A program made the position numbers and the translations under genes. 64,000 nt of DNA, taken from NCBI RefSeq assembly GCF_055900595.2, contig NZ_CM148325.1; one strand, given 5' to 3'. The notes under the pieces were generated by a model. It was not told where the DNA came from. It saw only the letters and a list, made by a program, of their open reading frames with translations, and did not search any database. This document shows positions 1-53,230 of the stretch, piece after piece (position 1 is the stretch's first letter; every line of letters begins with the position of its first letter).

Positions 1-24
1 GCGATGTTGACACGTCTTATTCTT

Positions 25-94
25 CAAAGTCGGATGCGACGCTGATGCGTCTTATCCGACCTACAGTTGGCATGCATCCGGCAATGTTGTAAGG
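25..94. repeat. REP (repetitive extragenic palindromic) element(s) downstream of ubiF
   Basis: Sequence cggatgcgacgctgatgcgtcttatccgacctac at 31..64, with a second gcatccggca-type half-unit after it, matches the enterobacterial REP/PU consensus; lies in an extragenic position. Confidence 0.6.
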
Positions 95-1270
95 CTACAA
101 CCCTAACGCATATTTCAGCGCCTGACGTTTCAACACGCCAGCTCGCTCCGCCGCCATTAACCCGAGATTACGCATAAAACGCAGTGGCGGCAGATTATTG
201 CTGAATCCGGCATAAAACAGATCCATACCGCTTTGCATAATGAAGTTATCCGCCATACGCCGCATCTGGTAACGCTTGAGGACAGGATAACTGGCCCACG
301 CTTCACCGTAGCTGCGGGCATTCACCAGAACGTCAATCAGCGCATCAACATCGCGATAACCAAGATTCACCCCCTGCCCCGCCAGCGGATGAATGGTGTG
401 CGCCGCATCGCCCACCAGCGCAAGCCCTGGTTGCACATACTGCAACGCATGGCGGCGCGTCAGCGGAAACGCACCAGCGGCGAGTGGCATCACGTACCCA
501 AGACGCGACGGGAAATGCTTCGCGATTTCCGCCTGGAGCTGCGCCATATTCATATTCTGCAACTGGCGAATACGCACCGGAGAGTCATACCACACCAGCG
601 ACGCCCAGTTATCAAACAGCGGCAGAAACGCGCGCGGCCCGTCCGGAGTAAACTGCTGCCAGGTGCTGTCGCCGGGATCATTCTCGCACTGTACGCTAAT
701 CAACATACACGACTGCGCATACTGCCAGGCATGAACGCCAATTCCCGCCATTTGCCGCACCTGCGAATTTGCACCGTCAGCGCCAATCACCAGCTTCGCC
801 TGGATCACTTCGCCCCCCTTCAGTTCCAGTTCCTGAAGATCATTATGGCGATGCAGAGCAATCAGTGAGCCTGGCACACGTAACGTTACTTTCGGATGCG
901 CTTCCAGCGCCTGCCACAGCGCCTGTTGCAGGACAGTGTTTTCCACCATATAGCCAAGCAACGGCAGCTTCAATTCGGCTGCATCAAACACCACATGCGC
1001 CGTTTCCCACTCCCACGTTTCCAGTCTGCGATAAGGATGGCAACGCATGGCCTGTACCGCGTCCCAGACGCCTAAATCTTTAAGCAATGATACCGAAGCC
1101 GCGCTGATCGCCGAGATCCGCACGTCAGGCTGGCTGTCAGCGACAAACGGTGCAGGTTCTGCGTGCTCGATTACCGTTACCGAAAATCCGTGCTGTGCCA
1201 GTCCCAGCGCCAGTGCGCCGCCGACCATTCCTCCGCCGACAATGGCAATTTCCGTTGGTTGATTTGTCAT
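95..1270 (-). CDS. ubiF: 2-octaprenyl-3-methyl-6-methoxy-1,4-benzoquinol hydroxylase (FAD-dependent monooxygenase)
   Basis: ORF-track 393 aa; N-terminus MTNQPTEIAIVGGGMVGG (FAD-binding GxGxxG) from the ATG at 1270; synteny next to miaB. Confidence 0.9.
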   Translation of the reverse strand: MTNQPTEIAIVGGGMVGGALALGLAQHGFSVTVIEHAEPAPFVADSQPDVRISAISAASVSLLKDLGVWDAVQAMRCHPYRRLETWEWETAHVVFDAAELKLPLLGYMVENTVLQQALWQALEAHPKVTLRVPGSLIALHRHNDLQELELKGGEVIQAKLVIGADGANSQVRQMAGIGVHAWQYAQSCMLISVQCENDPGDSTWQQFTPDGPRAFLPLFDNWASLVWYDSPVRIRQLQNMNMAQLQAEIAKHFPSRLGYVMPLAAGAFPLTRRHALQYVQPGLALVGDAAHTIHPLAGQGVNLGYRDVDALIDVLVNARSYGEAWASYPVLKRYQMRRMADNFIMQSGMDLFYAGFSNNLPPLRFMRNLGLMAAERAGVLKRQALKYALGL

Positions 1271-1415
1271 GGTCAATCATCCTGTTAGCAATATGCTTTA
1301 AGTTTACAGGATTTTTACCCCCAAGGGCTGATAACGCTCATACTGGTCACAACGGCAGCAAAGCATTACACTATGCGCCCTGCATTCCTGGCTACTATTT
1401 CGCAAGAGCAAGTCG

Positions 1416-2840
1416 ATGACCAAAAAACTCCATATTAAAACCTGGGGCTGTCAGATGAACGAGTACGATTCATCGAAGATGGCCGATCTGCTGGATGCCA
1501 CCCACGGCTATCAACTGACCGACGTGGCGGAAGAAGCGGATGTGCTGCTGCTGAACACCTGCTCAATCCGCGAGAAGGCTCAGGAAAAAGTCTTCCATCA
1601 GTTGGGTCGCTGGAAACTGTTAAAAGAGAAGAATCCAGACCTGATTATCGGCGTCGGCGGCTGCGTGGCATCGCAAGAAGGCGAGCACATTCGCCAGCGC
1701 GCCCACTATGTTGATATTATTTTTGGGCCGCAAACGCTGCACCGTCTGCCGGAGATGATCAACTCCGTACGCGGCGACCGCAGCCCGGTTGTAGATATCA
1801 GCTTCCCGGAAATCGAGAAGTTTGACCGTCTGCCGGAACCGCGTGCCGAAGGACCAACCGCGTTTGTCTCCATCATGGAAGGCTGCAATAAATATTGCAC
1901 CTACTGTGTGGTGCCTTACACCCGTGGTGAAGAGGTAAGCCGTCCTTCCGACGATATTCTGTTTGAGATTGCCCAGCTTGCGGCTCAGGGCGTGCGTGAA
2001 GTCAACCTGCTCGGTCAGAACGTGAACGCCTGGCGTGGTGAGAACTACGACGGCACCACCGGATCGTTTGCCGATCTGCTGCGTCTGGTTGCGGCGATCG
2101 ACGGGATCGATCGTATTCGCTTTACCACCAGCCATCCGATCGAATTCACCGACGATATCATCGAAGTGTATCGCGACACGCCGGAGCTGGTGAGCTTCCT
2201 GCATCTGCCGGTTCAGAGCGGTTCCGATCGCATTCTAAACCTGATGGGACGTACCCACACGGCGCTGGAGTACAAAGCGATCATCCGTAAATTGCGTGCG
2301 GCGCGTCCTGATATTCAGATCAGTTCTGACTTCATTGTCGGCTTCCCGGGTGAAACCACCGAAGACTTCGAAAAAACGATGAAGCTGATTGCCGACGTCA
2401 ATTTCGACATGAGCTACAGCTTTATCTTCTCCGCTCGTCCAGGAACGCCTGCCGCCGATATGGTTGATGATGTTCCGGAAGAAGAGAAGAAGCAGCGTCT
2501 GTATATTCTGCAAGAGCGCATTAATCAGCAAGCGATGGCATGGAGCCGCCGTATGCTCGGCACCACCCAGCGTATTCTGGTAGAAGGTACATCGCGTAAG
2601 AGCATCATGGAGCTTTCCGGTCGTACTGAAAATAACCGCGTGGTCAACTTCGAAGGTACGCCGGATATGATCGGTAAATTCGTCGATGTAGAAATTACCG
2701 ACGTCTACCCGAACTCTCTGCGCGGTAAAGTGGTGCGAACTGAAGATGAAATGGGTCTGCGCGTGGCAGAAACACCGGAATCGGTGATTGCCCGTACCCG
2801 CAAAGAAAATGACCTGGGCGTGGGTTATTATCAGCCGTAA
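1416..2840 (+). CDS. miaB: tRNA-i6A37 methylthiotransferase (radical SAM)
   Basis: 474 aa; radical-SAM motif CNKYCTYC; N-terminus [19 protein letters not shown]. Confidence 0.95.
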
Positions 2841-2845
2841 TTCTC

Positions 2846-2880
2846 AGGCCCGCCGTTCCGGTGGGCCTTGTTTTTTCTCT
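2846..2880 (+). terminator. Hairpin plus T-run after miaB (intrinsic terminator or attenuator before ybeZ)
   Basis: GC-rich inverted repeat aggcccgccgttccggtgggcct followed by tgttttttctct. Confidence 0.5.
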
Positions 2881-2992
2881 CTTTATCCCCATCTTTATCG
2901 CAATGCTTGCGCCTTTTTCCTGTGGCGTGAATAATTTCCTTATAGGCCGGTGAATGTTCAGCTTCCGGCGGCATACAGATAAGAGGAACGGT

Positions 2993-4033
2993 TTGAACAT
3001 AGACACTCGCGAAATCACTCTGGAGCCAGCAGACAACGCACGTCTGTTGAGCCTGTGCGGCCCGTTTGATGACAACATCAAACAACTCGAACGCCGTCTC
3101 GGCATCGAAATCAATCGCCGCGATAATCATTTTAAACTGACCGGCCGTCCGATTTGCGTCACCGCTGCGGCAGACATTCTGCGTAGCCTGTATGTCGATA
3201 CTGCCCCGATGCGCGGTCAGATTCAGGATATCGAGCCGGAACAGATCCACCTTGCGATTAAAGAAGCGCGCGTGCTGGAACAAAGTGCGGAGAGCGTGCC
3301 GGAGTATGGCAAAGCGGTCAATATCAAGACCAAACGCGGTGTAATTAAACCGCGCACGCCAAACCAGGCGCAGTACATCGCCAATATTCTCGACCATGAC
3401 ATTACCTTCGGCGTTGGCCCGGCGGGTACGGGTAAAACCTACCTGGCAGTGGCTGCGGCAGTTGATGCCCTGGAGCGTCAGGAAATTCGCCGTATTCTGC
3501 TGACTCGTCCGGCGGTAGAAGCCGGTGAGAAACTGGGCTTCCTGCCTGGCGATTTAAGCCAGAAAGTGGACCCGTATCTGCGCCCGCTGTATGACGCGCT
3601 GTTTGAAATGTTGGGCTTTGAGAAAGTCGAGAAGCTGATTGAGCGCAACGTTATTGAAGTCGCACCACTGGCCTATATGCGTGGTCGTACGTTGAACGAC
3701 GCGTTTATCATTCTTGATGAGAGCCAGAACACCACCATCGAACAGATGAAGATGTTCCTGACTCGTATCGGTTTTAACTCAAAAGCGGTTATTACCGGCG
3801 ATGTCACGCAGATCGACTTACCGCGTAATACTAAATCAGGTTTACGTCACGCTATCGAAGTGTTAGCCGATGTCGAAGAGATCAGCTTTAACTTCTTCCA
3901 CAGCGAAGACGTGGTTCGTCACCCGGTGGTAGCGCGTATCGTTAACGCTTATGAAGCCTGGGAAGAAGCCGAACAAAAACGAAAAGCGGCGCTGGCAGCA
4001 GAACGCAAGCGCGAAGAACAGGAACAAAAATGA
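2993..4033 (+). CDS. ybeZ: PhoH-like ATPase
   Basis: Walker [12 protein letters not shown] at 2993 is preceded by aagagga (SD) and gives 346 aa, which is the length I recall; the in-frame ATG at 2954 (359 aa) lacks an SD. Confidence 0.85.
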
Positions 4034-4497
4034 GTCAGGTGATCCTCGATTTACAACTGGCATGTGAAGATAATTCCGGGTTACCGGAAGAGAGCCAGTT
4101 TCAGACATGGCTGAATGCGGTGATCCCGCAGTTTCAGGAAGAATCGGAAGTGACTATTCGCGTGGTCGATACCGCCGAAAGCCACAGTCTCAATCTGACC
4201 TATCGCGGTAAGGATAAGCCGACCAACGTGCTCTCCTTCCCGTTTGAAGTACCGCCTGGCATGGAGATGTCGCTGCTGGGCGATCTGGTTATCTGCCGTC
4301 AGGTGGTTGAGAAGGAAGCACAGGAGCAAGGCAAACCACTGGAAGCGCACTGGGCGCATATGGTGGTGCACGGCAGTCTGCATTTGTTAGGTTACGATCA
4401 CATCGAAGACGACGAAGCAGAAGAAATGGAAGCCCTCGAAACAGAGATTATGCTTGCTCTGGGCTATGAGGATCCGTACATTGCCGAGAAAGAATAA
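4030..4497 (+). CDS. ybeY: Endoribonuclease YbeY (16S rRNA 3'-end maturation factor)
   Basis: 155 aa; metal-binding motif [11 protein letters not shown]; start overlaps the ybeZ stop (ATGA). Confidence 0.95.
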
Positions 4498-4586
4498 TTT
4501 GCCAGGCATTTGACTGGCAGACGTCCCCGCCGTTGGTGATTAACGACGGCGTTTTGATTAACTAACATGAGAACCCATACGACGCC

Positions 4587-5465
4587 ATGAGCGACGACAA
4601 TTCACACAGTAGTGACACGATAAGCAACAAGAAGGGATTTTTCTCCCTGTTACTCAGCCAACTTTTCCACGGTGAACCGAAAAACCGTGACGAACTGCTG
4701 GCGCTGATCCGTGATTCCGGGCAGAACGACCTTATCGACGAAGATACGCGCGATATGCTCGAAGGGGTGATGGACATCGCAGACCAACGCGTTCGCGACA
4801 TCATGATCCCCCGCTCCCAGATGATTACCCTGAAACGCAACCAGACGCTGGACGAATGCCTTGATGTCATCATCGAGTCCGCCCACTCACGTTTCCCGGT
4901 GATTAGCGAAGACAAAGATCACATTGAAGGGATTCTGATGGCGAAAGACTTGCTGCCGTTTATGCGCAGCGATGCTGAAGCCTTCAGCATGGACAAAGTG
5001 TTACGTCAGGCGGTTGTCGTTCCTGAAAGTAAGCGCGTAGACCGGATGCTGAAAGAGTTTCGCTCTCAGCGTTACCACATGGCGATCGTCATTGACGAAT
5101 TCGGTGGGGTTTCCGGTCTGGTGACCATTGAAGATATCCTGGAGCTGATTGTTGGTGAGATTGAAGACGAGTATGACGAAGAAGATGATATCGACTTCCG
5201 TCAGCTGAGTCGTCATACCTGGACCGTGCGCGCACTGGCTTCCATCGAAGATTTCAACGAAGCCTTCGGCACCCACTTTAGCGATGAAGAAGTCGACACC
5301 ATCGGAGGTCTGGTGATGCAGGCATTTGGGCATCTCCCGGCGCGTGGCGAAACCATCGACATCGACGGTTACCAGTTCAAAGTGGCGATGGCTGACAGTC
5401 GGCGTATTATTCAGGTTCATGTCAAAATCCCGGATGACTCACCCCAGCCAAAGCTGGATGAATAA
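4587..5465 (+). CDS. corC: CBS-domain Mg/Co efflux-associated protein CorC
   Basis: 292 aa; CBS pair plus CorC/HlyC C-terminal domain; synteny ybeZ-ybeY-corC-lnt. Confidence 0.9.
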
Positions 5466-5489
5466 AACCGAAACTGGATAGATAACTAC

Positions 5490-7028
5490 ATGGCTTTTGC
5501 CTCATTAATTGAACGCCAGCGCATTCGCCTGCTGCTGGCGTTATTATTCGGTGCCTGCGGAACGCTGGCCTTCTCTCCTTACGACGTCTGGCCTGCGGCG
5601 ATTATTTCGCTGATGGGGCTTCAGGCGCTGACCTTTAACCGCCGTCCACTCCAGTCTGCCGCTATTGGCTTTTGCTGGGGATTTGGCCTGTTTGGCAGCG
5701 GTATTAACTGGGTCTATGTCAGCATCGCGACCTTTGGCGGAATGCCTGGCCCAGTTAACATCTTCCTGGTGGTGCTGCTGGCAGCGTATTTGTCGCTGTA
5801 TACCGGACTGTTTGCTGGCGTGCTGTCGCGTCTGTGGCCGAAAACCACCTGGCTACGCGTGGCGATTGCCGCCCCTGCTCTCTGGCAAGTGACCGAGTTT
5901 CTGCGCGGTTGGGTGCTGACTGGCTTCCCGTGGTTGCAGTTCGGCTATAGCCAGATTGACGGTCCGTTAAAAGGACTGGCACCGATAATGGGCGTGGAAG
6001 CCATTAACTTCCTGCTGATGATGGTAAGCGGCCTGCTGGCACTGGCGTTGGTCAAACGCAACTGGCGTCCGCTGGTGGTGGCCGTCGTGCTGTTTGCCCT
6101 TCCCTTCCCGCTACGTTACATCCAGTGGTTTACCCCGCAACCGGAGAAAACCATTCAGGTATCGATGGTTCAGGGCGACATTCCGCAATCGCTGAAGTGG
6201 GATGAAGGCCAGCTTCTCAATACGCTGAAGATTTACTACAACGCAACGGCACCGCTGATGGGCAAGTCATCGCTGATTATCTGGCCGGAGTCGGCGATAA
6301 CCGACCTGGAAATTAATCAGCAGCCGTTCCTCAAAGCACTGGACGGTGAGTTGCGTGATAAAGGTAGCTCGCTGGTCACCGGGATTGTCGACGCGCGTCT
6401 CAATAAGCAGAACCGCTACGATACCTACAACACCATCATCACGCTGGGTAAAGGTGCACCGTATAGCTACGAATCAGCCGATCGCTATAACAAAAACCAT
6501 CTGGTGCCGTTTGGCGAGTTTGTCCCGCTGGAGTCGATTCTGCGTCCGTTAGCACCGTTCTTTGACCTGCCGATGTCGTCATTCAGCCGTGGACCATATA
6601 TCCAACCACCGCTGTCGGTAAATGGTATTGAGCTTACTGCGGCTATTTGCTACGAGATCATTCTCGGCGAGCAAGTGCGCGATAACTTCCGCCCGGATAC
6701 CGACTATCTGCTGACTATCTCCAACGATGCGTGGTTTGGTAAGTCTATTGGCCCATGGCAGCACTTTCAGATGGCGCGAATGCGTGCGCTGGAGCTGGCG
6801 CGCCCGCTGCTGCGTAGCACCAATAATGGCATCACGGCGGTGATTGGTCCGCAGGGTGAGATTCAGGCGATGATCCCGCAATTCACCCGCGAGGTGTTGA
6901 CCACTAATGTGACGCCGACTACCGGACTCACACCGTACGCACGTACCGGCAACTGGCCGCTGTGGGTGCTGACGGCACTGTTTGGTTTTGCCGCTGTGCT
7001 GATGAGACTGCGAGCACGTCAACGTTAA
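5490..7028 (+). CDS. lnt: Apolipoprotein N-acyltransferase
   Basis: 512 aa; multi-TM N-terminus followed by a carbon-nitrogen hydrolase domain; synteny. Confidence 0.95.
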
Positions 7029-7032
7029 TGTG

Positions 7033-7067
7033 AATGATGCACTGGCCAGCAAAATCGCATCATTTTT
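7033..7067 (+). terminator. Candidate intrinsic terminator after lnt
   Basis: 8-bp perfect stem aatgatgc / gcatcatt with a 16-nt loop, followed by ttt. Confidence 0.4.
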
Positions 7068-7132
7068 GCAGGCCAGATAAACTGTTCACACCACATCCGG
7101 TATCAACAAAACGTACTTTCTCATTGAGCTGT

Positions 7133-7160
7133 GGGGCGTGATTATCATGCCCCTTTTTTT
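7133..7160 (+). terminator. Hairpin plus T7 run abutting the stop of the convergent rhomboid-propeller ORF
   Basis: ggggcgtgat / atcatgcccc imperfect stem followed by ttttttt; the T-run overlaps the TAA stop (reverse strand) of ORF 7159..9096. Confidence 0.45.
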
Positions 7161-9096
7161 ACGGTTCAGGGATACAAGCCACATCGCCATATTGGGGATG
7201 CCGAATAATTGCCTGCGGATCAAGCGAGCGCGTCCTGTCCATTTGGATTAACCCGTTCTTCGCCATAACAAATATCTTTCTACCATCCGCTGAAAAACGA
7301 AGATGATTAACGTAGCTGGCAGGATAAACGCCAATAATCTGCCCGGCATTAATATTGAGCAGGATGACATAACCTTGCAGGCCATATGACACCAACGCTA
7401 AATACTGACCGTCCGGGCTAATACCCTCAACAGAATAAACGCTCCTGCTACACCATTGCGTCATAATGCTGGCTTGTTGATCCCCTGTGCTTATACCTGA
7501 AATCCCCTGACTATCGGCAAAAATAACCTCACCATTTTTTGGTCGGAATCCCATCGCAGAAACGACACCACGCGCATCACCTGCGGGAAAATCTTCTTTC
7601 TGATGCGTGATGGTATTGATCCGCACGATGTTACCTCTGCCTGCTCCCGGAACCAGTAATGTTTTTTCATCCGGGGAAAGTGCCATAACCCAGGCGCCTG
7701 GTTTACCGCTCGTCCCCGTCCCGTCGTATTTCTCCAGTGGGATATCCGCCACATGCTGATAAGTCACCAGATCAATCGCTGACACACTATTACTGGTGCG
7801 ATTCATCACCCAGGCTTTTGTGCCATCACGCGAGAGGATAAGGCTGTCAGGATGGGCGCCGGTGGTAATCGACTGAATAATCTCCCCCGTCGCCACGTTA
7901 ATGACCGATACTGCATTCGCTTCAAATGAAGTCGCATACAGCAACTTTTCATCGGGGCTTAACACCAGCGATCTGACGCCCTGATCTTTACAGCCACCAC
8001 AATGTTTGACTGACTTTTCTTTCGCTATGGGCGCTGTAAAGGTATGCAGGATTTTCTTTTGTCCGAGGTCGAAAACAACAATACTGTTCGTGTTTTCAAT
8101 TGCGGCATAAAACGTATTACCATCCCGACTGATCGCCATATCATGGATATCGGCAATCTCAGCGAGCAAATCACCACTGGCCTGTTCACGACTTACCGGA
8201 GCGGGTAATGTTTCCCTGAGGGCGTTGCGTTCCTCCGCTAACTGCTGCTTTTTATGCCGTCGCTCTTGTTCAATCTCCTGCGGATAAAACTCTTCACGCA
8301 GGCTTTGCCTGACCTGCAAAACTGATTCATCAATCTGCTGCTGCACAAGCCAGATAGCCCCGGTCAGTAGAAGACTACCCGCAACAATAATCCCGCCTTC
8401 CGTAACAAGTCGGTTTTGCCCAGATAAACGCGCACTCAGCCAACCCAACGCGCCCCCCGCAATCAGGCCGCCAATGTGGCAAGCGTTATCTATTCCTGTT
8501 TGCCGGGTACCATACAACAGTGTCAGCGCCACCATACCCAACAGAGAAAATACTCGCCGCTGGTTTTTATGGTGTGTACCCGCACCTGAAGAAAGCTGTG
8601 TTGCTATCGCAGCGCCAGCTATTCCCATAATTGCCCCGGATGCCCCAACGCTGATGACTATCTGCTCACTTTCGCGTAACGCATAACAGGCGCTGATGAG
8701 CCCACCAAAGATGCCGGAGAATAACCAGATAATCAGGAGTCGCCATTTCCCCAGTATCCGTTCCGCCACTGTCCCCACCACCAGGAGTGCAAACATATTC
8801 ATCAGCAAATGGGAAAAACTACTGTGCAGAAAAACACTGCTCAATAAGCGCCAGGGTTCACCCGACAACGTGAGAGAGGCAACGTTAGCGCCGAGATGGA
8901 TGAGTGCGGATTGATCGACTTCTTCATAACTCATCCATTGTGCGAGGTAACAAAATATCCCAACACATAGCGCAAAAAGGATCAGGGTTATTGCGGGTAA
9001 TTGAACATTTAACGGCTTAACCGAAGATGCAGACATAAGGTGATTCTTCCTTGAAAAGACAGGTAAAAAAGCATTTTTCCCGTGTGCAGTTATCAT
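7159..9096 (-). CDS. Rhomboid-family intramembrane serine protease fused to a C-terminal beta-propeller-like domain (YVTN/lactonase-type repeats); uncharacterised
   Basis: 645-aa ORF. Rhomboid signatures seen directly: WRLLSSVFLHSSFSHLLMNM, catalytic-Ser motif GASGAIMG, catalytic-His motif HIGGLIAGG, about 7 hydrophobic segments. C-terminal ~330 aa carry repeated S(P/R)DG...hydrophobic-strand units (SRDGNTFYAA, SPDEKLLYAT, SRDGTKAWVM, SPDEKTLLVP, SPDGQYLALV, SADGRKIFVM). Alternative start at the ATG at 9036 (625 aa) has a better SD (aggaag). Confidence 0.8.
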   Translation of the reverse strand: MITAHGKNAFLPVFSRKNHLMSASSVKPLNVQLPAITLILFALCVGIFCYLAQWMSYEEVDQSALIHLGANVASLTLSGEPWRLLSSVFLHSSFSHLLMNMFALLVVGTVAERILGKWRLLIIWLFSGIFGGLISACYALRESEQIVISVGASGAIMGIAGAAIATQLSSGAGTHHKNQRRVFSLLGMVALTLLYGTRQTGIDNACHIGGLIAGGALGWLSARLSGQNRLVTEGGIIVAGSLLLTGAIWLVQQQIDESVLQVRQSLREEFYPQEIEQERRHKKQQLAEERNALRETLPAPVSREQASGDLLAEIADIHDMAISRDGNTFYAAIENTNSIVVFDLGQKKILHTFTAPIAKEKSVKHCGGCKDQGVRSLVLSPDEKLLYATSFEANAVSVINVATGEIIQSITTGAHPDSLILSRDGTKAWVMNRTSNSVSAIDLVTYQHVADIPLEKYDGTGTSGKPGAWVMALSPDEKTLLVPGAGRGNIVRINTITHQKEDFPAGDARGVVSAMGFRPKNGEVIFADSQGISGISTGDQQASIMTQWCSRSVYSVEGISPDGQYLALVSYGLQGYVILLNINAGQIIGVYPASYVNHLRFSADGRKIFVMAKNGLIQMDRTRSLDPQAIIRHPQYGDVACIPEP

Positions 9097-9390
9097 CCCG
9101 GCAAACGTCCCATACCGAAAAGTTAACTCTGTCCGAAATATGACTTTTTCAGCCTGAAATTACAATCGTAATTAATTCATCCCTAAGTATTTTTTGGCAT
9201 GTAAGTTGCTTTATTTACTGTGTAAGCAATGAAATCAGCCGCAACGCAACCGGGTTGCACCAACACAAATCAGCGGTAGCACCAAAAAGGTGCGGTTTAA
9301 GAATTTTGCTTCGGAATGGTGCGGCGCATCTCGCAAAAACAAACAATAAAACATCAATATCTTTACATTTAGCCAAACTAAATGTTACCT

Positions 9391-9448
9391 AACAAACACA
9401 ACACTGCACAATAAAGTTGCAGATGATAACAACACAAACACTCACAAC
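9391..9448 (+). promoter_or_regulatory. C/A-rich elements in the gltI 5' leader (candidate GcvB sRNA target site)
   Basis: aacaaacacaacactgcacaa (9391..9411) and aacaacacaaacactcacaac (9428..9448), 44-100 nt upstream of the gltI ATG; gltI is a known GcvB target through a C/A-rich leader element in Salmonella/E. coli. Confidence 0.5.
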
Positions 9449-9491
9449 GGGTATCCATGCGTTCTTAACGCAGAAGATAAAGGAGTTGGAT

Positions 9492-10400
9492 ATGCAATTA
9501 CGTAAACCTGCCACAGCAATCCTGGCCCTGGCGCTTTCCGCAGGACTGGCACAGGCAGATGACGCCGCCCCGGCAGCGGGCAGTACGCTGGACAAAATCG
9601 CCAAAAACGGTGTGATTGTCGTCGGTCACCGTGAATCTTCAGTACCTTTCTCTTATTACGACAATCAGCAAAAAGTGGTGGGTTACTCGCAGGATTACTC
9701 CAACGCCATTGTTGAAGCAGTGAAAAAGAAACTCAACAAACCGGACTTGCAGGTGAAACTGATTCCGATCACCTCACAAAACCGTATTCCTCTGCTGCAA
9801 AACGGCACTTTCGATTTTGAATGTGGTTCTACCACCAACAACGTCGAACGCCAAAAACAGGCGGCTTTCTCTGACACTATTTTCGTGGTCGGTACGCGCC
9901 TGCTGACCAAAAAGGGCGGCGATATCAAAGATTTTGCCGACCTGAAAGGCAAAGCCGTAGTCGTTACTTCCGGCACTACCTCTGAAGTTTTGCTCAACAA
10001 ACTGAATGAAGAGCAAAAAATGAATATGCGCATCATCAGCGCCAAAGATCACGGTGACTCTTTCCGCACCCTGGAAAGCGGTCGTGCCGTTGCCTTTATG
10101 ATGGATGACGCTCTGTTAGCCGGTGAGCGAGCGAAAGCGAAGAAACCAGACAACTGGGAAATCGTCGGCAAGCCGCAGTCTCAGGAAGCCTACGGTTGCA
10201 TGTTGCGTAAAGACGATCCGCAGTTCAAAAAGCTGATGGATGACACTATCGCTCAGGTGCAGACCTCCGGTGAAGCGGAAAAATGGTTTGATAAGTGGTT
10301 CAAAAATCCAATTCCGCCGAAAAACCTGAACATGAATTTCGAACTGTCGGACGAAATGAAAGCACTGTTCAAAGAACCGAATGACAAGGCACTGAACTAA
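9492..10400 (+). CDS. gltI: Glutamate/aspartate ABC transporter periplasmic binding protein
   Basis: 302 aa from the ATG at 9492 (SD aggag at 9481..9485); signal peptide MQLRKPATAILALALSAGLAQA; the ORF-track start at 9417 is an upstream in-frame extension. Confidence 0.9.
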   Translation: MQLRKPATAILALALSAGLAQADDAAPAAGSTLDKIAKNGVIVVGHRESSVPFSYYDNQQKVVGYSQDYSNAIVEAVKKKLNKPDLQVKLIPITSQNRIPLLQNGTFDFECGSTTNNVERQKQAAFSDTIFVVGTRLLTKKGGDIKDFADLKGKAVVVTSGTTSEVLLNKLNEEQKMNMRIISAKDHGDSFRTLESGRAVAFMMDDALLAGERAKAKKPDNWEIVGKPQSQEAYGCMLRKDDPQFKKLMDDTIAQVQTSGEAEKWFDKWFKNPIPPKNLNMNFELSDEMKALFKEPNDKALN

Positions 10401-10556
10401 TTACAAGAACCAGGGGCGGAAATTCCAGCCCTCTCGATTGTTACGTAGCACGGACAGACTATACGCCTGATGGTCGTTCCCCATCGGGCCTGAAAACCGC
10501 AATACGCTGGGTAACAATCTTCGAGGGTAGCAGTTAACGCTGCTACCCTCTTTTTT
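10401..10556 (+). ncRNA. sroC: SroC-like sRNA processed from the gltI-gltJ intergenic region
   Basis: Intergenic segment immediately 3' of gltI ending in a strong Rho-independent terminator (gagggtagcagttaacgctgctaccctc + tttttt at 10523..10556); position matches the known origin of SroC in the gltIJKL mRNA. The 5' end is not determinable from sequence. Confidence 0.5.
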
Positions 10557-10569
10557 CTGGAGTAGATTT

Positions 10570-11310
10570 ATGTCTATAGACTGGAACTGGGGTATTTTTT
10601 TACAACAAGCCCCGTTCGGCAACACCACCTATCTTGGTTGGATCTGGAGTGGTTTTCAGGTGACGATCGCTTTGTCGATCTGCGCCTGGATTATCGCTTT
10701 CCTTGTCGGTTCATTTTTCGGCATTTTACGTACCGTTCCAAACCGTTTTCTCTCCGGTCTGGGTACGTTGTATGTCGAACTGTTCCGCAACGTGCCGTTG
10801 ATTGTGCAATTCTTTACCTGGTATCTGGTTATCCCTGAACTGTTGCCGGAAAAAATCGGCATGTGGTTTAAGGCAGAACTAGACCCAAATATTCAGTTTT
10901 TCCTCTCCTCCATGCTCTGTCTGGGACTGTTTACTGCAGCTCGTGTTTGCGAACAAGTACGCGCCGCGATTCAGTCGTTGCCGCGTGGGCAAAAGAATGC
11001 CGCGCTGGCAATGGGTCTGACGCTACCGCAGGCTTACCGCTACGTACTGTTGCCTAACGCTTATCGCGTTATCGTCCCGCCAATGACCTCTGAGATGATG
11101 AACCTGGTAAAAAACTCCGCCATCGCCTCGACCATCGGTCTGGTGGATATGGCGGCGCAGGCCGGTAAATTGCTCGATTACTCGGCCCACGCCTGGGAGT
11201 CATTTACCGCCATTACGCTGGCGTATGTGTTGATTAACGCTTTTATCATGCTGGTGATGACGCTGGTTGAACGTAAAGTTCGCCTGCCCGGCAACATGGG
11301 GGGCAAATAA
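10570..11310 (+). CDS. gltJ: Glutamate/aspartate ABC transporter permease
   Basis: 246 aa polytopic membrane protein; synteny gltIJKL. Confidence 0.9.
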
Positions 11311-11983
11311 TGTACGAGTTTGACTGGAGTTCCATTGTTCCTTCCCTGCCATATCTGCTCGACGGGCTGGTGATCACCCTGAAAATCACCATCACGGCGG
11401 TGGTCATTGGTATTTTGTGGGGTACGATGCTGGCAGTAATGCGCTTGTCCAGCTTTGCGCCGATTGCCTGGTTTGCCAAAGCCTACGTTAACGTATTCCG
11501 CTCGATTCCTTTAGTCATGGTTTTGCTGTGGTTTTACCTGATTGTGCCGGGTTTTCTGCAAAACGTGCTGGGATTATCGCCAAAAAATGATATCCGTTTA
11601 ATTTCGGCGATGGTGGCGTTTTCGATGTTTGAAGCGGCCTACTATTCAGAGATTATCCGTGCCGGTATTCAAAGTATTTCCCGTGGGCAGTCGAGCGCCG
11701 CGCTGGCGTTGGGGATGACTCACTGGCAGTCGATGAAACTGATTATTCTGCCGCAGGCGTTCCGCGCTATGGTGCCGCTGCTGCTCACTCAGGGCATCGT
11801 ACTGTTCCAGGATACCTCACTGGTGTATGTGTTATCTCTGGCCGATTTCTTCCGTACCGCCTCAACCATTGGTGAGCGTGATGGTACACAGGTCGAAATG
11901 ATTCTGTTTGCCGGGTTTGTTTATTTCGTTATTAGCCTTAGCGCATCGTTGTTGGTCAGCTACTTGAAAAGAAGGACAGCATA

Positions 11984-11984
<1 letters not shown>
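11310..11984 (+). CDS. gltK: Glutamate/aspartate ABC transporter permease
   Basis: 224 aa; start overlaps the gltJ stop by 1 nt; ABC permease. Confidence 0.9.
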
Positions 11985-12709
<725 letters not shown>

Positions 12710-12826
12710 TCACTCTGGCGCGCATACCCAAGTGCGCGCCATCTCACGCTTTCTCGTTTCGGCCCTCGTATCTGTTACATCCTGGCGTTACCCTTGTCGC
12801 AAAGAAGCACACAACAAGGAGCAACA

Positions 12827-13762
12827 ATGGCACTGCCAATTCTGTTAGATTGCGATCCAGGTCATGACGACGCTATCGCAATAGTTCTCGCCCTCGCCTC
12901 ACCAGAGCTTGATGTCAAAGCAATTACGTCTTCCGCCGGAAACCAGACACCAGAAAAAACCTTACGCAATGTTCTGCGTATGCTGACCTTGCTTAATCGC
13001 ACCGATATTCCGGTAGCAGGCGGCGCGGTAAAACCATTAATGCGTGATTTGATTATCGCGGACAATGTGCACGGCGAAAGCGGTCTCGACGGCCCTGCAT
13101 TACCGGAACCGACGTTCGCACCGCAAAACTGTACGGCGGTGGAGTTGATGGCGAAAACGCTGCGTGAAAGTGCGGAACCTGTCACGATTGTTTCTACCGG
13201 ACCGCAAACTAACGTTGCCTTGCTGCTCAATAGCCACCCGGAACTGCATAGCAAAATCGCCCGAATCGTGATTATGGGCGGCGCAATGGGGATTGGTAAC
13301 TGGACGCCAGCCGCCGAGTTTAATATTTATGTTGACCCGGAAGCGGCAGAAATTGTCTTCCAGTCAGGGATCCCGGTGGTGATGGCCGGTCTGGATGTTA
13401 CTCACAAAGCGCAAATTTACGTTGAGGACACCGAGCGTTTCCGCGCGATTGGCAACCCTGTTTCAACCATTGTTGCCGAACTGCTGGATTTCTTCCTCGA
13501 ATATCATAAAGACGAAAAATGGGGCTTTGTTGGCGCACCGCTGCATGACCCATGCACCATCGCCTGGCTGTTGAAACCAGAGTTGTTTACCACTGTTGAG
13601 CGCTGGGTTGGCGTGGAAACACAAGGGAAATATACCCAGGGTATGACGGTTGTTGATTATTATTATCTGACCGGCAATAAACCGAATGCTACTGTAATGG
13701 TCGATGTTGATCGTCAGGGCTTTGTTGATTTACTGGCTGATCGTCTGAAATTTTACGCTTAA
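12827..13762 (+). CDS. rihA: Pyrimidine-specific ribonucleoside hydrolase
   Basis: 311 aa from the ATG at 12827 (SD aagga); nucleoside hydrolase motif [17 protein letters not shown]. Confidence 0.9.
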
Positions 13763-25634: not shown

Positions 25635-26665
25635 TGATTCGGTTGTACCCGGAACAACTTCGCGCGCAGCTCAATGAAGGGCTGCGCGCGGCGTATCTTT
25701 TACTTGGTAACGATCCTCTGTTATTGCAGGAAAGCCAGGACGCTATTCGTCAGGTCGCTGCGGCACAAGGATTCGAAGAACACCACACTTTTTCCATTGA
25801 TCCCAACACTGACTGGAATGCGGTCTTTTCGTTATGCCAGGCCATGAGTCTGTTTGCCAGTCGACAAACGCTATTGCTGTTGTTACCAGAAAACGGACCG
25901 AATGCGGCGATCAATGAACAACTTCTCACACTCACTGGACTTCTGCATGACGACCTGCTGTTGATCGTCCGCGGTAATAAATTAAGCAAAGCGCAAGAAA
26001 ATGCTGCCTGGTTTACTGCTCTTGCGAATCGCAGCGTGCAGGTGACCTGTCAGACGCCGGAGCAGGCTCAGCTTCCCCGCTGGGTTGCTGCGCGTGCAAA
26101 ACAGCTCAACTTAGAACTGGATGACGCCGCAAATCAGGTGCTCTGCTACTGTTATGAAGGTAACCTGCTGGCACTGGCCCAGGCACTGGAGCGTTTATCG
26201 CTGCTCTGGCCGGACGGCAAACTGACATTACCGCGCGTTGAACAGGCGGTGAATGATGCCGCGCATTTCACCCCTTTTCATTGGGTTGATGCTTTGTTGA
26301 TGGGAAAAAGTAAGCGCGCATTGCATATTCTTCAGCAACTGCGTCTGGAAGGCAGCGAGCCGGTTATTTTGTTGCGCACATTACAACGAGAACTGTTGTT
26401 ACTGGTTAACCTGAAACGCCAGTCTGCCCATACGCCACTGCGTGCGTTGTTTGATAAACATCGCGTTTGGCAGAACCGCCGGGGCATGATGGGCGAGGCG
26501 CTAAACCGCTTAAGCCAGTCGCAGTTACGTCAGGCCGTGCAACTCCTGACACGAACGGAACTCACCCTCAAACAAGATTACGGTCAGTCAGTATGGGCAG
26601 AGCTGGAAGGGTTATCTCTTCTGTTGTGCCATAAACCGCTGGCGGACGTATTTATCGACGGTTGA
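25634..26665 (+). CDS. holA: DNA polymerase III delta subunit
   Basis: 343 aa; start overlaps the lptE stop (TGATG); synteny. Confidence 0.9.
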
Positions 26666-52160: not shown

Positions 52161-52195
52161 GCCCGCCAGGTAAGCCCACCTGGCGGGCTTTTTTA
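52161..52195 (+). terminator. Intrinsic terminator after citT
   Basis: Perfect 11-bp stem gcccgccaggt / acctggcgggc followed by tttttt. Confidence 0.8.
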
Positions 52196-53196: not shown

Positions 53197-53230
53197 AACC
53201 CTCGCCGCCTGACGGTGAGGGTTTTCTTTT
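53197..53230 (+). terminator. Candidate intrinsic terminator between rna and rnk
   Basis: aaccctcgccgcc / ggtgagggtt stem followed by ttttctttt. Confidence 0.5.

Follow-up and report, generated by a model that had tools for sequence, protein, structure and literature searches.

What ends transcription between lnt and the gene that faces it? The two genes converge on an intergenic spacer of 130 nt, and the preliminary description of this DNA placed two successive plus-strand terminator-like hairpins there: one immediately after lnt (hairpin 1) and a second (hairpin 2) with a run of seven Ts overlapping the stop codon of the opposing gene. The pair would insulate that gene from read-through of an operon running from miaB to lnt and might also serve as its own 3' end. 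We have followed up this proposal by folding, terminator scoring, homology searches and comparison across complete genomes. The window referred to throughout is the whole stretch of 64,000 nucleotides that was analysed.

The lnt/rhomboid locus

The window is E. coli DNA. Positions 6700-9500 are 100% identical to strain Z0117EC0005 (NZ_CP098223.1), compared with 93-96% identity to most other complete E. coli genomes. Identity of at least 99% over this interval is seen in only nine genomes, and the window therefore represents a minority haplotype or lineage at this locus. The two genes that flank the spacer are:

5490-7028, plus strand: lnt, apolipoprotein N-acyltransferase (open reading frame list; Pfam LNT_N and CN_hydrolase; RefSeq annotation of the identical genome)
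7159-9036, minus strand: rhomboid protease and beta-propeller gene (Pfam Rhomboid, 3.8e-29, then propeller families; annotation)

Both gene names as originally given are thus backed by Pfam and by the RefSeq annotation. The TAA stop codon of lnt, the last gene of the ybeZYX-lnt unit, lies at 7026-7028. The product of the opposing gene is annotated as a rhomboid family intramembrane serine protease of 625 amino acids, and its TAA stop codon is the complement of 7159-7161, in agreement with the PGAP annotation of the identical genome. Beyond this convergent pair come gltI and the sRNA SroC.

The rhomboid product has a catalytic Ser133 and His187. The same Ser/His numbering is given for Rhom7 of Shigella sonnei (SSON_0610) in the passages of the Rhom7 paper that we consulted (PMC7232013), which makes the rhomboid gene a probable E. 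coli counterpart (ortholog) of Rhom7; those passages make no mention of a C-terminal beta-propeller part (PMC7232013). The gene is annotated as a frameshifted pseudogene in CB6837 and EC476. Short metagenome-assembled contigs labelled 'Proteobacteria bacterium' and 'Collinsella sp.' bear E. coli-type lnt and rhomboid genes (94-95% protein identity), and the 'Collinsella sp.' contig is very likely a mis-binned E. coli contig.

The upstream boundary of the lnt unit differs from that first drawn, in which miaB was the leading gene of a single operon miaB-ybeZ-ybeY-corC-lnt. A strong terminator-like hairpin lies directly after miaB on the plus strand (2846-2868; 10 bp, eight G-C pairs, followed by TGTTTTTT; terminator score 26.9), which suggests that miaB is a unit separate from ybeZYX-lnt. 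The literature likewise names the operon ybeZYX-lnt, and describes its transcripts as 'not fully mapped'. A weaker plus-strand hairpin with a TTTT tail is located between ybeY and corC (4528-4551; 8 bp, -13.4 kcal/mol, score 1.3) and could represent an attenuator, or a site of processing, inside the operon.

Hairpin 2 has the anatomy of an intrinsic terminator

The second hairpin and its run of Ts are present exactly where they had been described:

7133-7153, plus strand: terminator-like stem-loop (hairpin 2), 9 bp including one G.U pair and six G-C pairs, 3-nt loop TTA
7154-7160, plus strand: U-tract of hairpin 2, T7, T-score 4.8

The stem is formed by GGGGCGTGA (7133-7141) pairing with TCATGCCCC (7145-7153), and begins 105 nt downstream of the lnt stop codon; the T7 run shares two nucleotides (7159-7160) with the rhomboid stop codon. 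In most other strains the U-tract reads T5-6 C TT. Folding of hairpin 2 gave -15.9 kcal/mol (z -4.56; range given, -14.7 to -15.9), and none of 200 shuffled sequences was as stable, so that the folding check proposed for this hairpin came out in its favour.

On a d'Aubenton-Carafa-type terminator score hairpin 2 reaches 37.9, close to the 39.0 obtained for the Rfam-confirmed sroC terminator elsewhere in the window (10523-10550). It is the top-scoring of four terminator-like matches in 6000-9000, where the number of matches is in no excess over the shuffled mean of 3.1, and the third strongest site in 1-13000, where the other three strongest sites likewise stand at the ends of plus-strand genes. 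When the cut-off is set at the level of hairpin 2 itself (a stem of at least 9 bp, at least six G-C pairs and at least seven Ts in eight positions), six sites are found on the two strands of the 64-kb window and none in 40 dinucleotide shuffles. The scan of the whole window also returned strong hairpin and T-run sites at 25660-25691, 52161-52188 and 53200-53221 on the plus strand and at 54565-54540 on the minus strand.

Comparison with known E. coli intrinsic terminators, of which the gltI/sroC terminator is the nearest example, points in the same direction. Hairpin 2 shares with them a GC-rich stem, a short loop, a U-tract immediately 3' of the stem, a site beyond the final gene of its transcription unit and a comparable score. 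Unlike the gltI/sroC terminator, this predicted terminator has a U-tract that enters the stop codon of a convergent gene and is confined to rhomboid carriers, being absent from K-12 and O157. In stem, U-tract, gene-end position and conservation, which are the features of a Rho-independent terminator that sequence can address, hairpin 2 has the expected form throughout.

Conservation and strand bias of hairpin 2

The 3237 genomes that have hairpin 2, out of 5426 complete E. coli genomes, comprise all of the rhomboid carriers (3237/3237); the hairpin is also found in E. whittamii and in Escherichia sp. MOD1. Among 20 sequences there are five haplotypes, with three variable positions in the stem, two of them A or G opposite U and the third C or U opposite G. 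In the plus-strand RNA these changes preserve pairing in 180 of 180 stem cells, as A-U/G.U or G-C/G.U pairs, whereas on the minus strand the same changes produce A.C mismatches and 163 of 180 cells are paired. Haplotype 2, which has an A in stem position 6, is fully paired on either strand. Formal pair counting over the 20 sequences found no double, compensatory changes in the stem, and the finding that three of three transitions are wobble-compatible on the plus strand (p = 0.125 under a 50:50 null) carries no statistical power. The variation in the stem would fit selection on the plus-strand transcript, a pattern that is suggestive and not significant. A peptide-pattern scan for the rhomboid protein across 100,044 species genomes yielded only four close Escherichia-type loci, which hold little divergence for covariation.

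We read hairpin 2 as a putative one-directional intrinsic terminator of ybeZYX-lnt, and consider this the best reading because the stem variants keep plus-strand pairing while breaking minus-strand pairing, and because of its score, its conservation and the failure of any shuffled sequence to equal it. The earlier proposal that the rhomboid gene is insulated from lnt read-through can accordingly be retained as a prediction for hairpin 2, given its anatomy, its sroC-like score, its presence in every carrier and its strand-specific pairing.

In strain 19SZHZ869Rt (NZ_CP080085.1) an IS1 element is inserted directly after the T-tract of the terminator, at CCCCTTTTTC|GGTGATGCTG (about 600-700 of locus L022). 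No rhomboid gene is annotated in this sequence; the terminator there therefore persists without a convergent neighbor.

The 3' end of the rhomboid transcript

A hairpin placed between convergent genes, 5 nt past the rhomboid stop codon, might be expected to end both transcripts. Bidirectional terminators are common to many E. coli convergent pairs (literature), and polymerase collisions may aid termination at such sites (preprint). Hairpin 2 resembles these bidirectional terminators in its position and in its nearly palindromic stem, and it also folds on the minus strand (-12.2 kcal/mol, z -3.85, for the window haplotype; range given with the C.A mismatch, -10.7 to -12.2 kcal/mol). However, the minus-strand stem has a C.A mismatch in the window and in most haplotypes, since the G.U pairs of the plus strand become C.A mismatches on its complement. 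The sequence 5' of hairpin 2 on the plus strand is GAGCTGT and includes no A-tract of the kind seen in bidirectional terminators, and the minus strand therefore has no U-tract; the minus-strand hairpin runs instead into the tail ACAGCUCAAUGAG / ACAGCUCAAUGAGAA / ACAGCTCAATGAGAA, with a T-score of 0.08 and a terminator score of -66.1. Two scanners and the terminator score found no minus-strand terminator downstream of the rhomboid stop codon or anywhere in 6000-9000. That hairpin 2 ends both the lnt and the rhomboid transcripts is, on this evidence, an improbable reading, and the suggestion that it doubles as the 3' end of the rhomboid gene is not upheld.

The rhomboid transcript is thus probably one that lacks a canonical terminator and ends by Rho action, by polymerase collision or by trimming back to a hairpin. 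A stretch of the minus strand in which C exceeds G (C/G 1.8) lies at 7038-6958, beyond the hairpin 1 region in the minus direction.

Competing folds in the hairpin 1 region

Two mutually exclusive structures can be drawn in the sequence adjoining lnt:

7033-7067, plus strand: hairpin 1 as first drawn, 8 bp, 16-nt loop, followed by T5; a weak alternative fold
7042-7076, both strands: stable alternative hairpin, 6+6 bp with an A.A mismatch (7048/7070) and a 9-nt loop

The pairing originally described, AATGATGC (7033-7040) with GCATCATT (7057-7064), does exist; its stability is not above chance (-7.2 kcal/mol, z -1.1, with 24 of 200 shuffled sequences as good), and its terminator score is -51.1. 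The minimum-energy fold of the region is the second structure, in which CTGGCC.GCAAAA pairs with TTTTGC.GGCCAG at -17.4 kcal/mol on the plus strand (z -2.9) and -16.8 kcal/mol on the minus strand. The folding check for hairpin 1 therefore gave a divided answer, with the hairpin as drawn being weak and a more stable rival overlapping it. The 3' arm of this rival incorporates the T-run of hairpin 1, and what comes next is ATAAAC and no series of Ts; the rival is without a T-run on either strand and scores -59.8 (plus) and -50.8 (minus). Taking either fold on either strand, terminator scores for the region range from -51 to -85, and the combination of stem and U-tract is lacking. No other copy of hairpin 1 was found in the window at up to three mismatches.

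These results bear directly on the proposal of tandem plus-strand terminators, with hairpin 1 acting first and partially and hairpin 2 as a back-up. It is true that hairpin 1 as drawn has an 8-bp stem followed by T5 and would form first during transcription. Its low stability, long loop and negative score, the sequestration of its T-run in the more stable 7042-7076 hairpin, its absence from 94% of genomes with the lnt-rhomboid pair and its lack of conservation even within the window-type alleles make such an arrangement extremely unlikely, and we set aside the description of the spacer as two successive terminators.

The hairpin 1 region is a decayed BIME

The origin of the region became apparent from E. 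whittamii, in which the locus was located by a species-wide scan. At the same site, 2 nt past the lnt stop codon, E. whittamii has a complete BIME consisting of a Z2 unit, a linker and a Y unit, the unit hairpins of which fold at -13.2 (Z2) and -20.9 kcal/mol (Y). Of 5426 genomes, 5425 each contain at least 40 matches to the 100-nt E. whittamii sequence, a repetition that identifies this sequence as a member of the REP/BIME family of the literature. Local alignment of the window spacer to this BIME scored 35, against 12.6 +/- 2.2 for shuffled sequences, and none of 1000 shuffles reached the observed score. The spacer of the window can accordingly be divided as follows:

7031-7103, no strand assigned: decayed BIME (REP pair) remnant, comprising a truncated Z2 unit, a mostly deleted linker and a mutated Y unit (7064-7103)
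7104-7132, plus strand: unstructured stretch separating the remnant from the terminator, from alignments; common to the short allele

Relative to the E. whittamii BIME, the window has undergone two internal deletions, one removing half of Z2 and the other most of the linker, together with substitutions in Y, which retains about 78% identity. The palindromes of the units have not survived: the Y-derived part folds at -4.2 kcal/mol (z 0.1) and the Z2-derived part at 0. The window-type variant occurs at full length in one place per genome, and is thus single-copy and not repeated, with weak REP-like partial hits elsewhere in the genomes over its positions 35-78. Since homology and location agree with REP/BIME and the unit hairpins and multiple copies do not, we file the region as a REP/BIME remnant and not as an active member of the family.

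In terms of the E. coli elements (units Y, Z1 and Z2, arranged as Z2-linker-Y), the window shares its site with the E. whittamii BIME and with a partial one in 1102 genomes, and like them the remnant lies outside genes, in a 3' UTR where two genes converge. Unlike an intact BIME, it has both unit hairpins destroyed, its linker largely deleted and only a single copy, and its sole stable hairpin is a new one. This is the 7042-7076 hairpin, made by pairing the inner, facing ends of what were once two REP units. The corresponding ends in strain 19KM1776 form a perfect 16-bp palindrome, with the region folding at -38 kcal/mol, which suggests hairpin-templated correction. In the window, EC476 and TCM3e1 the stem carries A.A, G.U and U.U changes without compensation. 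The BIME homology, the lineage restriction and this uncompensated decay together lead us to conclude that hairpin 1 is a decaying repeat remnant and not a conserved signal.

Could the remnant nonetheless act in a REP-like manner? REPs are known as partial Rho-dependent terminators and stabilizers of mRNA, they occur in about 30% of convergent intergenic regions, and where they separate two convergent genes they have been associated with increased expression of the pair (literature). The remnant might, on this account, be an exonuclease barrier, a pause that assists Rho, or both, and so define the 3' end of the rhomboid mRNA. The 7042-7076 hairpin is about equally stable on the two strands, the C>G stretch described above lies beyond it in the minus direction, and 19KM1776 has its perfect and very stable stem. 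Against this, 1933 genomes with the gene pair have no such element, the stem decays uncompensated among sister alleles and the canonical REP unit hairpins are destroyed in the window. We regard a functional remnant as unlikely; given the C>G stretch and the published behavior of REPs, the remnant may contribute to the end of the rhomboid transcript. The same account might extend to modulation of lnt translation termination, because the remnant is close to the stop codon, and is compatible with our preferred explanation. REPs near stop codons have been connected with tmRNA, an idea that we do not use as evidence.

Spacer alleles and polymorphism of the segment

Three length alleles of the lnt/rhomboid spacer account for all 3237 genomes with hairpin 2:

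77-nt spacer: short allele, 1933 genomes
126-nt spacer: allele with a Z2 REP, linker and truncated Y, 1102 genomes
130-132-nt spacer: window-type allele, 202 genomes, nine of them at least 99% identical to the window

The window-type allele is thus carried by about 6% of rhomboid carriers (202/3237). Small open reading frames in the spacer, such as one of 35 amino acids at 7034-7141, show no conservation, as the sequence that contains them is an indel polymorphism.

The whole segment 7029-9100, with the rhomboid gene and both hairpins, is itself a presence/absence polymorphism that reaches the region upstream of gltI. It is present in 3231-3237 of the 5426 complete E. coli genomes (~60%) and absent from K-12-type and O157-type genomes. 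In the genomes that lack the rhomboid gene the break begins at the lnt stop codon and the last lnt codons differ (...LRARQR* versus ...LRQRRK*); a REP-like sequence and an 11-bp hairpin follow lnt, and no canonical terminator was found there. K-12, the usual strain for Term-seq, does not have the hairpin 2 site because it lies in the segment deleted in K-12/O157-type genomes, and we found no 3'-end mapping at this locus in the literature.

The 3' UTR of lnt (7029-7160) might alternatively yield a small RNA processed from lnt mRNA, with hairpin 2 and its U-tail serving as an Hfq-binding terminator module. The long U-tract of hairpin 2 does resemble those of sRNA terminators, and the 3' UTR of neighboring gltI gives rise to SroC. 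Nevertheless, an Rfam scan of 5000-11000 at E <= 1 found no family in the spacer and only sroC (10396-10558), and a promoter scan of the spacer was likewise empty. In its upstream part the UTR is hypervariable among strains, and any conserved single-stranded seed would be confined to about 29 nt. We therefore think it very unlikely that the spacer produces an sRNA.

Discussion

Taken together, the spacer between lnt and the rhomboid gene is likely to hold two unrelated things, a one-way intrinsic terminator (hairpin 2) and a BIME remnant. From the anatomy, folding energies, conservation, homology and allele frequencies described above we infer the following steps of termination and protection. 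RNA polymerase coming from ybeZYX-lnt would transcribe the GC-rich 9-bp hairpin 2 and then seven U residues; the hairpin would form in the exit channel, the weak rU:dA hybrid would melt, and the transcript would end at about 7158-7161. With its end there, the lnt mRNA would overlap the rhomboid coding sequence by the stop codon at most. Hairpin 2 would then shield the 3' end of the lnt mRNA from exonucleases, and its stop would keep lnt read-through from proceeding antisense across the rhomboid gene.

The remnant has a separate history. In Escherichia a BIME, an inverted pair of REP units, is located a few bases past the lnt stop codon. The lineage of the window has lost the linker and half of Z2, and its Y unit has mutated; the inner ends of the units now make one new hairpin (7042-7076). 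This hairpin has no U-tract and in all likelihood is neutral, with a small part in RNA stability or pausing as the most that it would play.

A more far-reaching proposal is that the remnant, or the variable lnt 3' UTR as a whole, constitutes a strain-specific regulatory switch, or that the UTR releases an sRNA ending at hairpin 2. We hold this to be decidedly improbable; were the switch real, the mRNA of the Rhom7-like rhomboid, which has no terminator, would differ in 3' end and stability according to which of the three length alleles is present, and so would the level of antisense transcription into the essential lnt gene.

The explanation that we favor, a one-way terminator beside a BIME remnant, matters mostly for correct annotation. 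It concerns an ordinary feature and leaves the current view of termination unchanged: hairpin 2 adds one more terminator of a familiar type, standing beside a decayed REP. In the E. coli that carry the rhomboid gene, some 60% of complete genomes, the lnt unit would end at a strong terminator acting in one direction, which is missing from K-12 and O157, and what looked like a 'first terminator' is a decayed REP/BIME. The opposing gene, probably the ortholog of Rhom7, appears here without a terminator of its own, and the locus as a whole provides a tidy example of how a REP site is gained, truncated, collapsed and remodeled between strains.
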